Source: Arthrobacter ginkgonis
Lineage (GTDB): Bacteria > Actinomycetota > Actinomycetes > Actinomycetales > Micrococcaceae
Assembly (NCBI RefSeq): GCF_039540195.1
Contig: NZ_BAABEO010000025.1
Coordinates: 83,631-107,630, forward strand
DNA length: 24,000 nt
Direction: 5' to 3'
Under the pieces are notes generated by a model. The model worked only from the letters and a program-made list of their open reading frames with translations, had not been told where the DNA came from and ran no database searches. This document shows, piece after piece, positions 5,195 through 23,711 of this stretch (position 1 is its first letter; each line of letters opens with the position of its first letter). The translations under genes were made by a program, and so were the position numbers.

Positions 5195-6934
5195 TCAGTC
5201 CGCCCGGCCCTCCGCCGTCTTGCGCGTGGTGAACGGCAGGACCAGCCGGGACTGGTGGGCGGCGTCGCGGTAGATCTTGTGCGTGACGGGCCGGCCCACC
5301 GGCAGGTGGAAGGCGTCCGGCGGCAGCAGCGCGTTGTGCTCGTCGGCCAGCGGTTCGCTGTTGGACAGTTCCGCCACCAGCTTGTGGCCGGGCCGGAAGG
5401 TGTTCGCGAACGGGTAGAGGCGCACCACGTACTCCTCGATCCTGCCCGGCTCCACCGGCACCACGCGGGTGTGCGGGTGGTACGGGTTGCCCTCGGTGGT
5501 GCGCTCGTCCAGCTCGCGGTGCGAGGCCTTGAGGTAGCCGGTGGTGATCAGCTGGCGCTTGCCGTTCGGCGCGGCGTCCCACAGGCGCAGGATGAAGTTG
5601 GTGTCCGGCTGGTCGATCTCGGCGAAGAGGTGCGCGGCACCGGTGCCGATCATCTCCGCATCCTCCTCGAAGACGGGGGTGGACCAGGAGATGATCTCCA
5701 CCTTGTCGGTCACCGTGAGCGGCGCCTGGTAGAAGCCGTCCGGGGCGGCGTACTCCGCGCCCATCGGCTCGGGCTCGGTGGAGAGCTTGTGGCGCGGGCG
5801 CAGGTACAGGGACCTGTACTCGATGTCCTTCGGCGGCCAGGCGTCCGCGGTCACCAGTTCCCGGGAGCCCTCCACGAAGACGCTCACGGCCGGCTCGTCC
5901 ATCACGCCGTTGTCGATGCCCTTGATCCAGTAGTCGTACCAGCGGAACATCTTGTCGTGCTCCTCGATGAAGGGCCGGGACTGCATCGGCGGGTAGGGGC
6001 CGATGTCCAGCTTCTTGGGCCCCTTGAGCTCGTTGAACAGCTCGATGGTGCCGTCCAGGGTCCAGCCCCGGCCCTGGTCCAGCTGCAGCCAGACCGGGAT
6101 GTCGATGTTCGGGGCCAGCGTGATGGGGTTGCGCTCCTCGTACCATTCCCCGTCGAGCTCGTTCATCACGATGTCGAACCAGGCCTCGTGGTTCTTGGGG
6201 TAGTTCAGCACGTGCACCAGGTTGGGCCAGGCGGCGACGTCCGGGTCCTCGAGGCGCATGGCGACCAGCTTCTTGAGCTCCTCGGGCGAGTGCTTCTCGA
6301 TCATGCGGGACTTGACGTTGTCGGTGAACGCCCAGCCGGAGTCGCCGCCGCGGCCCTCGCGGGCGGCACGGGGCATGAACCACATGATGCCGCCGTGGTA
6401 GGTGGTCTCGTAGAAGTCGTAGTGGCCGCCGGAGACGAAGATCGCCTTCAGGCTCGGCGGGCGCTCGGCCGCGGCCAGCACCTGCATGGAGCCGAAGTAG
6501 GAGATGCCGACCATGCCGACGTTGCCGTCGCACCACGGCTGGGCGGCGACCCACTCGATGAAGTCGTACGCGTCCTGGCCCAGCGAAACGCCGCCGGCGT
6601 TGTAGTTGCCGACGTGCTCGCCTTCGGAGGCGCCGGAGCCGCGCAGGTCGCCGATGACGTGGACGTAGTCCTCCTTGACGATCCGAGCGATGTCCCCGGC
6701 CTCGATGCAGCCGTCCCACATGGGGCTGGGGCGCCGCTGCGGCGGGGTGGTCAGGGCCAGCGCCTGCAGTTCCTTGCCGTACGGGCTCAGGGCCACCAGC
6801 GCCGGGCGCGGCTTGTCCTCGAGGCCCTGGTAGGCGTCGGCGGCGAGCTCGACGCCGTCCCGCATCGGGACGCGGAGGTCCTTGCGGATGGCGATCGTCT
6901 CTCCGCCGGCGTTCCACGTCGTGAAATCAGCCAT
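5195..6934 (-). CDS. CocE/NonD-family alpha/beta hydrolase (S15 X-Pro dipeptidyl-peptidase-like)
   Basis: Track ORF 5195..8185 is over-extended; the plausible start is ATG at 6934 (MADFTTWNAGGETIAIRKDLRVPMRDGVELAADAY). Supporting motifs are the nucleophile elbow GMVGISYFGS, GDLRGSGASEG, and a long C-terminal beta-domain typical of CocE/NonD. Confidence 0.8.
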   Translation of the reverse strand: MADFTTWNAGGETIAIRKDLRVPMRDGVELAADAYQGLEDKPRPALVALSPYGKELQALALTTPPQRRPSPMWDGCIEAGDIARIVKEDYVHVIGDLRGSGASEGEHVGNYNAGGVSLGQDAYDFIEWVAAQPWCDGNVGMVGISYFGSMQVLAAAERPPSLKAIFVSGGHYDFYETTYHGGIMWFMPRAAREGRGGDSGWAFTDNVKSRMIEKHSPEELKKLVAMRLEDPDVAAWPNLVHVLNYPKNHEAWFDIVMNELDGEWYEERNPITLAPNIDIPVWLQLDQGRGWTLDGTIELFNELKGPKKLDIGPYPPMQSRPFIEEHDKMFRWYDYWIKGIDNGVMDEPAVSVFVEGSRELVTADAWPPKDIEYRSLYLRPRHKLSTEPEPMGAEYAAPDGFYQAPLTVTDKVEIISWSTPVFEEDAEMIGTGAAHLFAEIDQPDTNFILRLWDAAPNGKRQLITTGYLKASHRELDERTTEGNPYHPHTRVVPVEPGRIEEYVVRLYPFANTFRPGHKLVAELSNSEPLADEHNALLPPDAFHLPVGRPVTHKIYRDAAHQSRLVLPFTTRKTAEGRAD

Positions 6935-16507: not shown

Positions 16508-16783
16508 GTGAAGAAGATCGGATTCCTGTCCTTCGGCCACTGGACCGACCACCCGCAGTCCGGCACGCGCAGCGCGTCGGACGCGCTCCTGCAGGCGATC
16601 GACCTCGCGGTCGCGGCCGAGGAGCTCGGCGCGGACGGCGCCTACTTCCGTGTTCACCACTTCGCGCAGCAATACGCCTCCCCGTTCCCGCTGCTCGCCG
16701 CGATCGGGGCACGGACCAGCCGAATCGAGATCGGCACGGGCGTCATCGACATGCGCTACGAGAATTGCAACTCCATGAATTGA
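16508..16783 (+). pseudogene. 5' fragment of an LLM-class (luciferase-like) flavin-dependent oxidoreductase gene, truncated by insertion
   Basis: VKKIGFLSFGHWTDHPQSGTRSASDALLQAIDLAVAAEELGADGAYFRVHHFAQQYASPFPLLAAIGARTSRIEIGTGVIDMRYEN matches the N-terminal roughly 25% of LLM enzymes of about 330-350 aa. After the Asn codon (16763-16765) the frame reads CNSMN-stop, and the integrase gene begins within about 10 nt. Confidence 0.65.
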
Positions 16784-16800
16784 GCTACCTTGGGTAGCGT
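16745..16800. other. Host/element junction (attL-like); crossover inferred near 16765-16768
   Basis: LLM homology by eye ends at ...MRYEN (codon 16763-16765). The element-derived sequence tgcaactccatgaattgagctaccttgggtagcg runs into the integrase start. The exact core dinucleotide cannot be determined from one junction. Confidence 0.4.
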
Positions 16801-18352
16801 GACCGACAACCGCCTCCGCGCTGTGCTGTACCTCAGATTGTCGGCTGTGTCCGACGACTCCACCAGCCTCGATCGTCAGGAAAGAGACCTGCGCGAGCAC
16901 GCCGGGCGCAAGGGCTGGCACGTCACCGAGGTCCTCGTAGATGAAGGCATCTCCGGCAGGAAAGCCCGCGCCAAGGCCGCCGAGGCCGTCCGTATGATCG
17001 CCGACGACGAGGCCGACGTCCTGGCCGTGTGGAAGTTGGACCGCTTTACAAGAATGGGCTATGACGGGCTCGGCGCGCTCTCCCAGGCCCTCGCCACCCG
17101 CGCCGAGGGCGCCAAGGCTGGCCGGTGCATCCCGGCGCTATTCGTCGCCCTGCATGACGGCCTCAATTCCAATCAAGCCGCGTTCCGCATGATCGCGGGC
17201 GTATTGAGCGAGGTTGCCAGGAGCGAGGCCGAGAACGCCGCCGCGCGCATTGCTAACTCGATCGAGCACCGCAAGACACGGACCCATAAATTCGCGGGAG
17301 GGTCCGCCGTGCCGCTCGGCTACCGCTCTGTCCCGGCGCCGGACGGTACGGGGCGCATCCTCGTACACGACGACGAGGAGGTCGCCCTTATCCGCGACGT
17401 GGCGGCGCGCATCCTCTCCAATATCGAGTCGCTTACCGGCATCGCCGCCGACCTGAACAAGCGCGGCGTGCCGACGTCCAGGTCGCTCGCGCGCCGCGCG
17501 CTCCGCCAGGGGTTGCCCGCCGAGGGCCTGGATACTGGCAAGTGGACTGTGTCGACGTTCCGCAACGTCTGGACGTCCGACGTGCTCCTCGGCCGCGTCG
17601 TGCATCGTGGCAAGTTCGTTTCCGACGCCGCCGGAATCCCCTTGGCCGTATGGCCGCCGATCCTGGACCGCTCCACCCTGGACGCTCTCCGCGTCCGCAT
17701 GAACTGGAAGCCGCGCAAGGATCAACGCGGCCCGCTGGGGCTCCCGCCCGCGCCGAAACCGAAGGTCCAACCTACCCGCAAGCGTGCCGCGCGGATCTTG
17801 TCGTCGGTCGCGTTCTGTGGGCTCTGCGACTCGCGCCTGTACGTGACGACGACGTCGGGCACACCTATCTACAAGTGCGGGTCTAGCTGGAATGGTGAGA
17901 AATGCCCTTCGCCGTCGATCACCGCCGACGCCCTGGACGAGTACGTCGCCGCCCGCGTCCTGGCCGTCGCCGGAGAGTGGCCCGAAATGGCTACCGAGAC
18001 GATCGCCAGCGGCGGCGCCCCCGAGGCGACCCTCGCCGAGATCGAGGCTCTCCTCCGCGAGGCGTCCGTCGCCATGACGGAGGACGACGCCCAGGTGCCG
18101 GAACTCCTGGAGCGGATCGCCGGACTCAAGGCCCGCCGTGCCGACCTCCGCGCCCGCCCCGTGACCGTCGAGACCGTAAGCAAGCCCACCGGCCGCACGC
18201 TGGCCGAGGCATGGGACGCCGACGAGGGCACCGCCTGGCGCCGTTCTGTCCTCCTATGGGCGATCGACCATGTCCGCGTCGGTCCGCGTACGCCCGGCAT
18301 GGGCACCCGCGCATTCGACGAGGACCGCGTCGCGATCTACTGGAACTCCTGA
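16790..18352 (+). CDS. int: Large serine recombinase (Bxb1/phiC31-type serine integrase)
   Basis: N-terminal resolvase domain with a catalytic Ser context AVLYLRLSAVSDDSTSLDRQ, and VWKLDRFTR. It also has a recombinase domain, zinc ribbon FCGLCDSRLYV...YKCGSSWNGEKCPS, a coiled-coil segment (EIEALLRE...LLERIAGLKARRADLRAR) and a C-terminal WRRSVLLWAIDHVRV. The architecture parallels Bxb1 gp35 as I recall it. The start is TTG 16790 or GTG 16799. Confidence 0.9.
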   Translation: MGSVTDNRLRAVLYLRLSAVSDDSTSLDRQERDLREHAGRKGWHVTEVLVDEGISGRKARAKAAEAVRMIADDEADVLAVWKLDRFTRMGYDGLGALSQALATRAEGAKAGRCIPALFVALHDGLNSNQAAFRMIAGVLSEVARSEAENAAARIANSIEHRKTRTHKFAGGSAVPLGYRSVPAPDGTGRILVHDDEEVALIRDVAARILSNIESLTGIAADLNKRGVPTSRSLARRALRQGLPAEGLDTGKWTVSTFRNVWTSDVLLGRVVHRGKFVSDAAGIPLAVWPPILDRSTLDALRVRMNWKPRKDQRGPLGLPPAPKPKVQPTRKRAARILSSVAFCGLCDSRLYVTTTSGTPIYKCGSSWNGEKCPSPSITADALDEYVAARVLAVAGEWPEMATETIASGGAPEATLAEIEALLREASVAMTEDDAQVPELLERIAGLKARRADLRARPVTVETVSKPTGRTLAEAWDADEGTAWRRSVLLWAIDHVRVGPRTPGMGTRAFDEDRVAIYWNS

Positions 18353-18376
18353 GAGCCGCCCGGCGGCCCCGTACGG

Positions 18377-18406
18377 AAGCCCCGGACACATTCCTGGCCG
18401 GGGCTT
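18377..18406 (+). terminator. Stem-loop after the integrase gene
   Basis: AAGCCCCGG (18377-18385) / CCGGGGCTT (18398-18406) with a 12-nt loop, followed by TCCTATTCCC. It lies 25 nt after the stop. Confidence 0.45.
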
Positions 18407-18983
18407 TCCTATTCCCGCACACGGGCGCCCAGAGCCGCCCAGGAGACCGCCCGGCACCGCGCGGCCTAGGCGTTCCGCGCCCGTCCTCCGCGCTTCTAGG
18501 TCCAGTCCCGCGCCTGGATCCTGGCGCCGACCCGAGGAGCCCCAGACGCCCCGCTGAGGCCCTCCTCTTGTCTCCGGCGGCTGGCGCCGGTCCTGTCCGC
18601 GCGAGGCCCGGAGGTGGCCACGTGGCGACCTTGGATCCCTGCGCCGTGGCCAGGCTGGCGGGCGGCGCCCGCCTCGGCGAGATGCCAGCCCGTTTACACG
18701 CCGAGGACAACGCGGGAGGAGGCGGCCGTCGCCCCCGTGCCAGTTTCCCCGCCAGGAGGCGCCGCCCCAGGATCCGCCCGTGCCCGGCGGGCCTGAAGGC
18801 TCTGGCCCGGTTCCGAGGCCGCCAGGCGGCCGCCCAGGGCGCCGGAGGAGGTGGCGGCGGTTCGCCCTCGCGGGGAGAGGGCGGCCCGCCCCGTGCCCGC
18901 GTCCGTGCCAGCGCGGGAGACGACGGCCGGAGGCGCCGGAGAGGTCGTTTTCCCGACCCTGGACGCCTGCGTCTGAGCCTAAA

Positions 18984-19092
18984 GGTGGTGGAAGTGGTGA
19001 AAGTGGAGGTACTTCTCTATCCGTTCTCAAGTAAAGCCATTACTTGAGTAGAGATATAGAGAGACCACCACTTTCGCCACTTTCACCACTTC
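18984..19092. repeat. Module 1: inverted arrays of 9-bp GTGGNGNNN units flanking an AT-rich core with a central hairpin
   Basis: Left array is GGTGGTGGAAGTGGTGAAAGTGGAGGT (18984-19010). The right array, as its reverse complement, is GAAGTGGTGAAAGTGGCGAAAGTGGTGG (19092-19065). The identical 16-mer GAAGTGGTGAAAGTGG lies at 18991-19006 and inverted at 19077-19092. TCTCTAT/ATAGAGA is also inverted. The central hairpin is CTCAAGTAA (19026-19034) / TTACTTGAG (19040-19048) with a 5-nt loop. Confidence 0.8.
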
Positions 19093-19223
19093 GGGCCGTC
19101 ACCGGCCGCCCTGGCCCGCTCCCCGCGCGATCGTGACCGGCCGCACGCCCCGGCCGTGGACAGTTTCGGCGCTCCTGGCGGTCTTCTCTCTTGTAAGCAC
19201 CCGACCACGACCCCGGCCCGGTC

Positions 19224-19387
19224 GGATCCGCATTTAACGGACCCTGGCCGTCTACTCAGACGGGAGAGACCCGCGCATTTGTAACACCCCCGGCCGTCTA
19301 CTCAGACGGGAGAGATCCGCGCCCGCGTCCTGTACGCCCGGCCGTCTACTCCAGTAGGAAAGATCCGCGCCGCGTGCGCCTGGATCC
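19224..19387 (+). repeat. Tandem direct repeat, period 46-48 bp, about 3 copies, each with a conserved 31-bp core containing a 6-bp hairpin
   Basis: GGCCGTCTACTCAGACGGGAGAGACCCGCGC begins at 19246 and GGCCGTCTACTCAGACGGGAGAGATCCGCGC at 19292. A degenerate copy GGCCGTCTACTCCAGTAGGAAAGATCCGCGC begins at 19340. CCGTCT-ACTC-AGACGG is self-complementary. Flanking (GA)TCCGC(GC)ATTTRTAAC is also repeated before copies 1 and 2. Confidence 0.85.
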
Positions 19388-19404
19388 TCCCCCCCACCAA
19401 GTTT

Positions 19405-19610
19405 GAACCGTCCGCGCCCGCGCACTCTCCGGGGCGCGGCGGTTCGCACCCCGTCCGAGCGGCCTAAGCCCCCGCTCGGCGCTGGCCCTCGTGGCCGGTC
19501 TTTTCATGGATGGGACCCGGTAGCCCCGCCGCCGTAAACCCGGCGGGGCTACTGCCCTCCTGTCCGTGAGCCCTCACCCGCCGCCGTACCCTCGGCGGCA
19601 TTTTCATTTG
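19405..19610 (+). ncRNA. Structured untranslated region: four or five consecutive GC-rich hairpins, the last terminator-like (candidate leader/attenuator or small RNA)
   Basis: H1 at 19405-19445 pairs GAACCG(T)CCGCGCCC with GGGCGCGGCGGTTC. H2 at 19455-19479 pairs CCGAGCGG with CCGCTCGG. A weak stem with TCTTTTC lies at 19482-19505. H3 at 19520-19552 pairs GTAGCCCCGCCG with CGGCGGGGCTAC (12 bp, perfect). H4 at 19580-19599 pairs GCCGCCG with CGGCGGC and is followed by ATTTTCATTTG (to 19610). No ORF covers the region. Whether this is an RNA, and on which strand, is inferred. Confidence 0.3.
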
Positions 19611-19648
19611 CCAAACAAAGTAAGCCAACGCCCGAAAGGAGGCCGCCC

Positions 19649-19864
19649 ATGGCCGACCATGTCTGTCTCATTTGTCACCGCCCGTTCACTGGCCAGGCCA
19701 GCGCGGAAACGTGCTCTACAGCCTGCCGAGTCACCCGCTCCCGGCGGCGCAAGGAGGCCGAGCGCCGGAAGGCCCTGGACCTCCTGGCCCGCATGGCCAC
19801 CGCCCGCGACCCGGCCGTCGTCGAGTCGCTCCGGCGCGAGGCCGAGCGCCTCACCCGCGACTAG
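19649..19864 (+). CDS. Small zinc-ribbon-like basic protein (71 aa), function unknown
   Basis: Strong RBS GAAAGGAGG sits 6 nt before the ATG. The sequence MADHVCLICHRPFTGQASAETCSTACRVTRSRRRKEAERRKALDLL has a CxxC-x12-CxxxC arrangement followed by an Arg/Lys-rich helix. Confidence 0.7.
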   Translation: MADHVCLICHRPFTGQASAETCSTACRVTRSRRRKEAERRKALDLLARMATARDPAVVESLRREAERLTRD

Positions 19865-19870
19865 CCCGCG

Positions 19871-19944
19871 AGTGGTGAAAGTGGCGTTTGTGGTCTTTCT
19901 TCTGTTCGTTTCTACAGTTCTGCTCTCTCTAGCCACACCACACC
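19871..19944. repeat. Module 2: a second GTGG-unit array, pyrimidine/AT-rich core and CCAC-rich inverted partner
   Basis: AGTGGTGAAAGTGGCG (19871-19886) is identical to the reverse complement of 19075-19090 in module 1. It continues TTTGTGGTCTTTCTTCTGTTCGTTTCTACAGTTCTGCTCTCTCTA, then GCCACACCACACC (19932-19944). It starts 7 nt after the zinc-ribbon gene stop. Confidence 0.7.
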
Positions 19945-20171
19945 CCCCCAAACTCACCCCCCACACGCTGACTAGGCGAAATGCGCCTATTTGCCCGCCT
20001 ACGCATGGTGCGTGTGGTGAGTAGCCGGCCCCTATTTACAGCGGCCGGCAATTCACGCGGGGAGAGCCTCCGGCCCTTACGCCCGGAGGGCGTTTGTGTC
20101 CCTCCAACTCACGCCCGCAAGTACCGCCCCACACCGGGGCACCGCCCCCACCCCTTGAAAGGACCCCCACC

Positions 20172-21029
20172 ATGCCTAGCCCCGTCCGCCTGACCGCCTG
20201 GACCGCCAACCCGTCCACCTCCACCAACCCGCTCCCGTCGCCGTCGACGGCCCGCCGTTCCGGCGGCTGGCCGATTGGTCTCCTGTCCGAACTCCTGGCC
20301 CCGGAGATCGCCCGGAGGGGCGTCACGTACAAGCGTGGCCAGGGGTTCCGCCAGTTCGGCGAGACCCTGGACGACTACGCCGTCGCGACGATTGCGCGCA
20401 CGGTCCTAACGATCGCGGCCGAGCACCTGGACCCGCACCAGTCCCGTTATGAGTCCCTGGAGCGTGTCCGCGACATGGCCGCCGAGTGGATGGACGAGGC
20501 CCACGCCGAGGCTCACAGCATGATCGACGACTACGAGGAGGCCGAGGCGGTCGCCCAGGCCGCTACGGCGGCGCCTACGTCGTTCTACGCCGCCGCCGTC
20601 GAGGGCATGGAGGCCCGCGACGCGCTGGCCCTGGATCGTGAGACGGCCGCCCGTGTGGCGCCGTTCGATGAGTACGCCGTCGCCTTGTCTCGCACGGCCC
20701 GCGACCTGAAACAGTCCGGCCACGCCCGCGCCGCCCTGGCTCGGGATCTGCGTTCGCTCCTGCCCGCGCCGGTTGCCGAGGCGGACACCTCCGGGGACGA
20801 CGCGGCCGCGTGGCTGTCCCAGTTCGACGAGGTCGACAAGGTCCGCCAGGCCGACCTCGCCCGCGAGTACGACCTGGACGGCGCGCCCGGCGGCCTGTCC
20901 GGTTCCGAGTTGCGCGCCCTGGCGGCGACCCGTTGGGGGATGCCGCGCGCGTTGCGTGGTTACCCGACGTTCCGGCCCGCGCGTGCGGCCGACCGTACCG
21001 CCCGCGAGACCGTCGGCGCCGCCAATTGA
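20172..21029 (+). CDS. Hypothetical protein (285 aa), Ala/Asp/Glu-rich, no recognised domain
   Basis: ATG 20172 is preceded by TTGAAAGGACCCCCACC, inside track ORF 20094..21029. Composition is coding-like, unlike the overlapping Arg/Pro-rich shadow frames. Confidence 0.65.
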   Translation: MPSPVRLTAWTANPSTSTNPLPSPSTARRSGGWPIGLLSELLAPEIARRGVTYKRGQGFRQFGETLDDYAVATIARTVLTIAAEHLDPHQSRYESLERVRDMAAEWMDEAHAEAHSMIDDYEEAEAVAQAATAAPTSFYAAAVEGMEARDALALDRETAARVAPFDEYAVALSRTARDLKQSGHARAALARDLRSLLPAPVAEADTSGDDAAAWLSQFDEVDKVRQADLAREYDLDGAPGGLSGSELRALAATRWGMPRALRGYPTFRPARAADRTARETVGAAN

Positions 21030-23075: not shown

Positions 23076-23711
23076 ATGAACATCGAGACCACCGCCACCG
23101 AGACCAGCAAGCCGAATCACACCCCGGAACAGCGCCGCTATGACCGCGCGGTTTACCGCCGCGTTAAGCGCGGCATGGAGCACAGCGCCAGGTTCGCCGC
23201 CGCCGACGCCGCAACCGCCCCGCTCGCCCTCATGGCGCCCCACTCCCGCGCGGCCTGGCTGGCCCTGGACGAGGCCGCACGCCTGGACCATTTGCGCCAG
23301 GTCCTCCGCGCCCAGGCTAAGGCCGTCATCGGCCCGCGCCCGGAGGACGTCGAGGAGACCGCACCGGCCACCGTCGAGACCACGGCCGCACCGGCCACCG
23401 TCGAGACCACGGCCGCACCGGCCACGCCTGCCCGCCCCTCCGGCCGCCGCCTCGTCGTTGCCTGCATCGGCGGGTGCGGAACCTGGATAGTCGCCACCTC
23501 GGCCCGGCCCGCCGTCGTGCGATGCACGCCCGGCCAGCGCCGCGCCCAGCGCGAGGACCCGACCGGCGCCGCTCCCGTTGAGGCCCGCTCGTCGCACGCC
23601 GCGACCGCCTCGGCCGTCGACTACTCCGCCGCCCGTGCCGAGCGCCCGGCCGCCGCCCAGGGTAGGCGCAAAGCCAAGCGCCGCGCCCGCGCCGCGACCT
23701 GCGGCAAGTAG
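23076..23711 (+). CDS. Hypothetical protein (211 aa); long member of the second paralog pair, with a 9-aa tandem repeat and a Cys-containing basic C-terminal extension
   Basis: ATG is preceded by ACGAAGGACCCAACCCC. EQRRYDRAVYRRV...FAAADAATAPLALM...WLALDEAARLDHLRQVLRAQAKAVIGPRPEDVEE is paralogous to the upstream ORF. It continues with PATVETTAA x2.5, then VVACIGGCGTWIV...VVRCTPGQRR and an RRKAKRRARA tail. Confidence 0.65.
   Translation: MNIETTATETSKPNHTPEQRRYDRAVYRRVKRGMEHSARFAAADAATAPLALMAPHSRAAWLALDEAARLDHLRQVLRAQAKAVIGPRPEDVEETAPATVETTAAPATVETTAAPATPARPSGRRLVVACIGGCGTWIVATSARPAVVRCTPGQRRAQREDPTGAAPVEARSSHAATASAVDYSAARAERPAAAQGRRKAKRRARAATCGK
23361..23428 (+). repeat. In-frame 27-bp tandem repeat, about 2.5 copies
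   Basis: GCACCGGCCACCGTCGAGACCACGGCC occurs at 23361-23387 and identically at 23388-23414, with a partial copy GCACCGGCCACGCC at 23415-23428. Confidence 0.9.

Follow-up and report, generated by a model that had tools for sequence, protein, structure and literature searches.

The DNA considered here is a stretch of 24,000 nucleotides from Arthrobacter ginkgonis (G000:C25:83631-107630, hereafter the window); positions beyond its right end are given in the coordinates of locus L001, which continues it (L001:1378-1490 is equivalent to window 25378-25490). Our subject is Module 2 (M2), a small array of GTGG units with a pyrimidine-rich core that lies on the plus strand of a mobile island, between the gene of a 71-amino-acid (71-aa) zinc-ribbon protein and a cargo operon. 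Ordinary chromosomal genes occupy positions 1 to ~16500 of the window. Next comes a serine-integrase island of 10.9 kb, inserted into a gene for a luciferase-like monooxygenase; the N-terminal half of this split gene is found at 16508-16765 (Pfam profile positions 3-75) and the C-terminal half at L001:3641-4396 (profile positions 85-242). The junctions, with a GAA-type core, fall at ~16766, inside the monooxygenase gene, and at ~L001:3630. The large serine integrase (16790-18352, plus strand; Pfam Resolvase, Recombinase and Zn_ribbon_recom) is ~60% identical to the integrases of cluster AZ phages and shares 54-56% identity with its counterparts in Curtobacterium phages and phi AAU2. Behind it come a 1.3-kb gene-free region, the zinc-ribbon gene, M2 with a 300-nt leader, the operon, a further module (M3) and a convergent gene for a HIRAN-domain protein. 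The gene-free region itself holds a palindrome (Module 1, M1), an "orphan" box, three tandem repeats of 46-48 bp and a run of hairpins.

A first-pass annotation had reported that a GTGG array and a CT-rich core recur after the stop codon of the zinc-ribbon gene, and both are indeed present, with AGTGGTGAAAGTGGCG at 19871-19886, GTGGTC at 19890-19895 and CCACACCACACC at 19933-19944. The nine units that it counted within 960 bp were also recovered. With at most one mismatch, GTGGYGAAAGTGG occurs 5 times in the window (0.04 expected, and none of 100 shuffles reached 5), and the exact 14-mer AGTGGTGAAAGTGG is found 4 times in the 5.19-Mb genome, always in the island, within 6.4 kb of contig C25. 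The conserved unit, which aligns with M3, with its counterpart in a related island and with phage palindrome arms (see below), is larger than first noted and spans 19865-19978. It is composed of three tandem GTGGYN units with an 8-9-bp period (19872-19895; GTGGTGAAA, GTGGCGTTT and GTGGTC), a pyrimidine-rich core (19896-19932) and a C-rich, G-poor tract (19933-19965). The core has ~40% GC in a region of 66-75% GC, which places an AT-rich stretch beside the repeats.

M1 (18985-19089, no strand assigned) is a palindrome of 105 bp whose arms contain three GTGGYG(A)AA units each and whose centre is low in GC. The proposal that M1 and M2 are built on one array design holds. The 50-nt arms of M1 are 80% complementary and its two strands fold with z-scores of -9.0 and -8.7. 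Conversely, M2 was said to be closed by an inverted partner, for which we found no support: M2 and M3 fold like shuffled sequence on either strand (z from -0.15 to +0.12), and the CCACACC tract is absent from the orthologous module of the related island. Searches of Rfam gave sub-threshold, microRNA-like matches on the M1 hairpin only and nothing on M2 or M3. An RNA structure or known RNA family was thus rejected for M2 and M3, which fold no better than shuffles and match no Rfam family.

M3 lies outside the window, at L001:1378-1490, and is 86% identical to 19865-19978 over 115 nt, within a gapped homology to M2 of ~220 nt. The units of the two modules are identical and a perfect block of 36 nt covers the arrays. 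Downstream, M2 is continued by the operon leader (19979-20171, plus strand), which contains a distal GTGGTGAG unit (20014-20021), a block that we call C (~20033-20085, CCCTATTTACA...GCAATTCACGCGGGGAG; 32/46 identical between M2 and M3) and a terminator-like hairpin (20073-20091).

The only related island that we found is in Arthrobacter sp. NPDC089319 (G183; locus L142, G183:C5:203000-222999). There, the integrase, an M1-type palindrome (M1'), boxes, hairpins, the zinc-ribbon gene, a half-module (M2'), a leader block and a homologue of the first operon gene follow each other in the same order. The first-pass annotation had named modules lost beside conserved genes as an outcome that would refute it; as the layout from the palindrome to the operon is kept in G183, with a half-module at the same place, the modules are conserved together with their flanking genes. 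The units of M2' are GTGACGAA, GTGACGTAA and GTGATC, the first of which includes the stop codon of the zinc-ribbon gene, and M2' stands 230-300 nt ahead of the operon gene. In a three-way alignment, identity between the islands was 32/42 over the 3' end of the gene and the arrays, 18/30 over the core and 37/45 over block C. About 70 nt of the A. ginkgonis leader are missing in G183, including the CCACACC tract and the distal GTGGTGAG unit; the unit register is kept between the islands while part of the leader in between cannot be aligned. By eye, a TANNNT hexamer occurs at nearly the same column in all three half-modules. Beyond the shared operon, the G183 island encodes an XhoI-like restriction endonuclease together with a methylase of the Eco57I/N6 type (L142:5061-7431), and its right part has a low-GC stretch not seen in the A. 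ginkgonis island.

These comparisons bear on the idea that M2 is a decayed palindrome half and M3 a segmental duplicate of the zinc-ribbon 3' end, M2 and leader, neither with a present function. M3 indeed retains CTCACCCGCGAGTG, the final codons of the zinc-ribbon gene, although the gene itself is missing there. It lies ~330 nt past the intrinsic terminator of the operon and is followed by ~480 nt with no convincing open reading frame (ORF) or Rfam match, then by the convergent HIRAN-domain gene. No counterpart of M3 was present in the 20 kb of G183 examined, and a comparative study of AZ phages mentions, as "data not shown", repeats between the integrase gene and the helix-turn-helix (HTH) genes, in which it sees possible traces of mobile cassettes (bioRxiv 10.1101/2025.05.26.655371). 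However, the two islands, with protein identities of only 52-59%, have both retained a half-module in this position, and its unit register is conserved beside leader sequence that does not align; we therefore hold a functionless relic to be improbable.

When the region was compared with sequence databases by BLAST, only Arthrobacter phages were retrieved, and always in unannotated intergenic DNA. Arrays of GTGRYG(A)AA units are found in palindromes of cluster AZ Arthrobacter phages, of phi AAU2 and of Curtobacterium phage Mysterium. VResidence, KeAlii, Sue2, phi AAU2 and Mysterium share one order: the integrase gene (or whichever gene precedes) comes first, in most cases with an intrinsic terminator behind it, then an M1-like palindrome, a CT-rich box 45-60 nt further on and a conserved small gene, which encodes a small basic protein. 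Each arm of the phage palindromes contains three or four (G/A)TG(A/G)(C/T)G(A)AA units with a period of 8-10 bp, then CTCTAT...YAAG, and the central dyad is kept through compensatory changes. Since phage Emotion has two palindromes and no integrase, the integrase is not the array binder. An unrelated perfect palindrome, GTTTCACGTGAAAC, is present in seven copies in Emotion (L013; positions 4448, 6605, 18001, 19680, 20042, 25114 and 44985), with no relation to the arrays or boxes.

M2, M3 and M2' align unit for unit with 16 palindrome arms. Like the AZ-type palindromes, M2 and M3 have three tandem GTGRYG(A)AA units and a low-GC, CT-rich inner segment, aligned column by column; unlike them, they have a single arm and neither dyad nor hairpin (z ~0, compared with -9 for M1). 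The A. ginkgonis M2 also lacks the TCTAT...YAAG inner motif, and whereas the palindromes follow the integrase gene and a terminator and stand 45-85 nt before a promoter-like box, M2 is in the operon leader and M3 after the operon. A sequence-only model (R1) was built from all arms, including those of M1 (M1L and M1R), M2 and M3 as training rows. In the 5.19-Mb genome it recovered exactly M1L, M1R, M2 (E-value 1.5e-7) and M3, the informative part being that nothing further was matched. Among 17 genomes of the genus of G183 and 150 of the family, R1 found three copies in G183 and one M1-type palindrome with a box in G163; a match in G174 was discarded as a false positive in a coding repeat. One-armed copies were seen in the two islands only and not in the phage sequence examined. 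Judged on this alignment, M2 is a half-palindrome, consisting of the array of one arm and the inner segment without the dyad, and its apparent evolutionary origin is a single arm of an AZ-type integrase-proximal palindrome that has lost its dyad partner. The G163 palindrome (G163:C90 ~80385-80425; L177:1400-1560) has degenerate arrays; a box-like site and then a gene with the start MAS... come next, an arrangement also seen in AZ-type phages. This locus is probably a prophage.

Simpler pattern searches added little. The exact module pattern gave chance matches only, in unrelated taxa, and none in viral contigs, where the 14-mer gave unspecific matches only; a scan with the pattern CTCTAGCCACACCNCACC returned one match, in coding sequence. 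A degenerate triple-unit pattern applied to 400 genomes was useless, being as frequent as its reversed control. An attachment site was rejected for M2, as the island junctions have no GTGG arrays and the attP of phi AAU2 is far from the palindrome. Mimicry of cos or pac sites was likewise rejected, since the island matched the termini of Emotion, KeAlii and VResidence at noise level only, and no cos-like sequence was found in it.

The phages also explain the orphan tract at 19176-19197, which had been located correctly and taken for a copy of the pyrimidine tract of the modules. Emotion has ten copies of a box, TGGGCCG-N10-11-CTGGCGCTCTCCTC, always on the coding strand and most of them ~30-50 nt before the start codons of early or right-arm genes; KeAlii, Sue2 and Mysterium carry variants of their own. 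With a position weight matrix (PWM) derived from the Emotion boxes, the top match in the whole genome was the orphan tract (20.4 bits, at 19175), which is a distinct element, a phage-type promoter-like box (19157-19196, plus strand; TGGACAG, 11 nt, CTGGCGGTCTTCTC). M2 and M3 scored below 8 bits and no box of at least 8 bits lies downstream of either. Of the four GGTCTYCTCT tracts announced by the first-pass annotation, the exact pattern exists in the orphan only; allowing at most one mismatch, 5 were observed against 2.5 expected (12 of 100 shuffles did as well), so that the motif is not significantly enriched, and none of the matches besides the orphan lies in M1 or M2. Further downstream, the three tandem repeats of 46-48 bp (family D1, 19242-19370, plus strand; CTGGCCGTCTACTC...GGGAG) resemble the phage-type CTGGCGCTCTCCTC box and seem to be diverged copies of it. 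The PWM score at 19244 was 9.5 bits, and at the matching position G183 has the near-consensus boxes CTGGCGCTCTCCTCCCTCGGGAG and CTGGCGCTCTACTCCTACGGGAG, which end in ...GGGAG. The G183 boxes match the phage consensus almost exactly, and those at 6535 and 11552 (the latter a fourth box, further downstream) possess the upstream TGGGCCG half.

What, then, could a half-palindrome do at this place? In both islands M2 is located between the stop codon of the zinc-ribbon gene and the operon leader, a position that points to transcriptional control. So does the position of its palindromic parent, which in the phages stands between a terminator and the promoter-like box; the arrays are thus part of a regulatory setting. 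The most economical reading would be a shared operator or an array of iteron type to which a protein binds. We tentatively favour, as quite possible though short of probable, that M2 controls the cargo operon as a cis-acting operator or upstream protein-binding site, its core being low in GC and poor in G. In such a scheme, the protein that reads the GTGRYG arrays of the palindrome would also occupy M2 and its duplicate M3. Once bound at M2, it would govern whether transcription reaches, or starts at, the operon; this transcription might originate at the phage-type boxes that precede the zinc-ribbon gene, or within the AT-rich, TANNNT-containing core, the low GC content of which may also serve promoter melting. 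Finally, an AZ-type phage, either infecting or resident, would provide the binder in trans, so that island expression would be tied to that phage.

M2 is also remarkable for its base composition, which suggested another function. Its 78-nt window 19885-19962 is 74% pyrimidine (33 C, 9 G) and that of M3 76% (31 C, 9 G); both reach at least the 99.99th genome percentile, and no other 78-nt window of the island is as rich in pyrimidines. Such C-rich, G-poor and unstructured tracts, at least ~70 nt long, might be Rho-loading (rut) sites, M2 ending transcripts behind the zinc-ribbon gene and M3 behind the operon, unless termination is overridden. M2 begins directly after a stop codon, M3 is at the end of the operon and faces a convergent gene, and the core of M2' is pyrimidine-rich too. 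Nevertheless, a rut site leaves the best conserved part, the tandem GTGRYG units, and the homology to palindrome arms unexplained. In addition, an intrinsic terminator already ends the operon well before M3, and the C-rich block (block B) is absent in G183. We thus think it improbable that M2 and M3 are essentially sites for Rho.

The identity of the binder was approached through the zinc-ribbon protein, whose gene (19649-19864, plus strand, stop codon at 19862-19864) is preceded by the ribosome-binding site GAAAGGAGG and encodes a CxxC...CxxxC motif followed by an Arg-rich helical hairpin. The first-pass annotation had proposed an autoregulated unit, and this protein could in principle bind the arrays of M1, M2 and M3 and repress or activate its own gene and the operon. 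In both islands its gene is bracketed by M1 and M2, M2 abutting or overlapping its stop codon, and occupies the place of the small basic protein gene that follows the palindrome and box in phages. The protein is 52% identical to its G183 orthologue with the four cysteines and the Arg-rich helix all kept, and its AlphaFold2 model, a zinc knuckle and a basic helical hairpin, is predicted with confidence (predicted local distance difference test, pLDDT, of 92). On the other hand, the same arrays exist in phages in which tblastn detected no homologue of it. It matched no Pfam family at an E-value of at most 0.01 (Ogr_Delta included) and had no structural neighbour with an E-value below 0.3 in PDB or BFVD, and DNA binding is a guess from its composition. 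Homologue searches returned the protein itself alone by word index and only weak zinc-ribbon repeats by HMMER, and homology to the gene after the phage palindromes was rejected (hhalign probability 0.1). The 71-aa protein as array binder is therefore not supported by these data, and we regard autoregulation by it as unlikely.

The alternatives of an initiator with iterons or a centromere-binding protein with its sites lack their protein half. With Pfam, PHROGs and PADLOC, none of the island ORFs was recognised as belonging to a family for replication, initiation, partition, capsid, terminase or defence, nor as a Rep, primase or helicase. Of the earlier interpretation of the modules, the shared design and the operator-type array stand, and the zinc-ribbon binder, initiator and centromere versions lack support. 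A replication role may be formulated differently, with M1 as an iteron-type origin for a P4-alpha-like primase-helicase of a helper and M2 and M3 as accessory iteron clusters with an easily melted core. Short tandem units do flank a centre of ~40% GC in a 70% GC genome, AZ phages encode a primase-helicase with Toprim, D5_N and DUF5906, and since none of the island's own genes is recognisable as a replication gene, a borrowed initiator is plausible. P4 and the Staphylococcus aureus pathogenicity islands (SaPIs) have short direct-repeat clusters next to an AT-rich stretch, and P4 uses a distant second iteron region (crr). The island resembles P4 ori/crr and the SaPI iteron origins as a satellite-type element with such clusters and a distant second cluster in cis; it differs from them in having no initiator gene, in its 8-9-bp spacing and in the transcriptional position of M2, at a gene boundary in a leader. 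The spacing is off helical phase, M2 lies exactly at that boundary in both islands, the AZ1 phage palindrome stands between a terminator and the promoter-like box, away from replication genes, and nothing ties the primase-helicase to the arrays. A replication role for the modules consequently seems to us unlikely. In a tblastn search of the host genome with selected Emotion proteins, only polA-like sequences and one primase-helicase homologue were found, the latter at G000:C12:67651-68805 (28% identity), presumably in another mobile element; it has no GTGG arrays near it.

As for an operator read by a phage protein, the arrays are a trait of phages with which the island has only the integrase in common (outside it, tblastx of the two islands against the AZ phages gave low-scoring noise), which makes a phage-supplied binder more likely. 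The arrays predate the islands and occur in phages without a detectable 71-aa homologue, and the island copies the phage box too. Searches of the host genome detected neither a recombination directionality factor of the Gp3 type nor any sigma-like or structural homologue of Emotion proteins; together with the phage box in the island, this fits dependence on a helper phage. For these reasons the array binder would more likely be encoded by a phage than be the 71-aa protein. AZ phages encode sigma-like HTH proteins, and their immunity repressor and promoters are still unidentified (bioRxiv 10.1101/2025.05.26.655371); we confirmed sigma-like HTH proteins for Emotion gp49 and gp50. Another AZ phage paper mentions no palindrome, promoter or intergenic element, and we found no paper describing integrase-proximal palindromes or the CTGGCGCTCTCCTC box.

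Several observations weigh against operator control of the operon by such a binder. A profile made from phage arms only and run by nhmmer over the whole genome and the G183 locus found the arms of M1' (E-values 1.6e-9 and 1.1e-4), the right and left arms of M1 (8.5e-5 and 0.043), M2' (1e-3) and, at an E-value of 5.8, M3, with nothing beyond these; it did not report M2. In this search the match to M2' speaks for the favoured reading, and the lack of one to M2 against it: the homology of M2 to the phage arms rests on a chain from M2 through the right arm of M1 and M2'. The conservation statistics are thin, as only two islands are available and M2 and M3 are paralogues, and a perfect 36-nt block at 86% overall identity has, by a rough estimate, P ~0.05. 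A consensus scan for sigma-70-type promoters (-35 and -10 hexamers spaced by 16-18 nt) was negative in 18300-20300 and in L001:900-2100. No gene follows M3, which hence has no obvious operator or promoter target, and as this genome has no AZ-type prophage, the proposed binder is hypothetical for this host.

The cargo operon is made of same-strand genes for unknown proteins and ends at ~L001:990 at an intrinsic terminator. Its first gene, supported by an analysis of third-position GC by frame (20172-21029, plus strand), encodes a protein of 285 aa whose sole homologue in 5.8 billion proteins and 400 genomes of the family is the G183 protein (59% identity). It had no match in the genome_contigs or metagenome_contigs collections and belongs to no Pfam, PHROG or PADLOC family; its AlphaFold2 model was unusable (pLDDT 39.6). 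Ahead of the zinc-ribbon gene, the run of GC-rich hairpins (19405-19609, plus strand) includes two that are terminator-like (19481-19499 and 19580-19599). M1 and M3 each have in front of them a stretch of several hundred bases (18352-18975 and L001:1050-1378, respectively) that is very GC-rich, apparently non-coding and full of CCAGGAGG and GCCGGAGG motifs, and the phage palindromes are preceded by purine-rich stretches of similar style but shorter. A perfect 27-bp tandem repeat (2.5 copies, 100% matches) was noticed at 23359-23425, in the poorly defined ORF region of the island. Near its right end, a box-like site, CGTGCTCTCTCCTCCGGTGTCC (15.8 bits, minus strand, L001:3083-3104, equivalent to window 27083), may serve leftward genes, among them that of the HIRAN-domain protein (L001:1970-2671).

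Phage satellites offer a parallel to an element wired in this way. P4 promoters are activated by Ogr of P2, and the packaging operon of SaPIs by a late activator of the helper. As in these systems, helper-type cis-elements stand ahead of an operon in the island and a gene for a small zinc-binding protein adjoins them. Unlike them, the 71-aa protein is not an Ogr/Delta protein (it has no Pfam match), capsid, terminase and packaging genes are missing, and the helper dependence is only inferred. It is conceivable, though we hold it with clear doubt, that the island is a new, minimalist type of actinobacterial phage satellite without structural, packaging or replication genes, which copies AZ boxes and palindrome arms and in which M2 and M3 are sensor sites for a helper protein that switch the cargo operon. 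A second parallel is provided by the stoperators, repressor-type sites of 13-14 bp scattered in the genomes of cluster A mycobacteriophages. Like M2, they are oriented sites of repressor type within transcription units of a temperate actinophage lineage; they are, however, single sites found genome-wide, whereas the island has triple tandem units at two or three places.

If M2 were only a local operator or a relic, it would be a case of ordinary mobile-element regulation. If the control module that we propose is real, a gene-poor island would wire itself to a phage by borrowing regulatory DNA rather than proteins. It would also give a handle on two features of AZ-type phages for which we found no published account, the GTGRYG palindrome and the CTGGCGCTCTCCTC box. 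The natural half-site variants of the islands would separate array binding from the dyad, which would make both the binder and its function directly testable.

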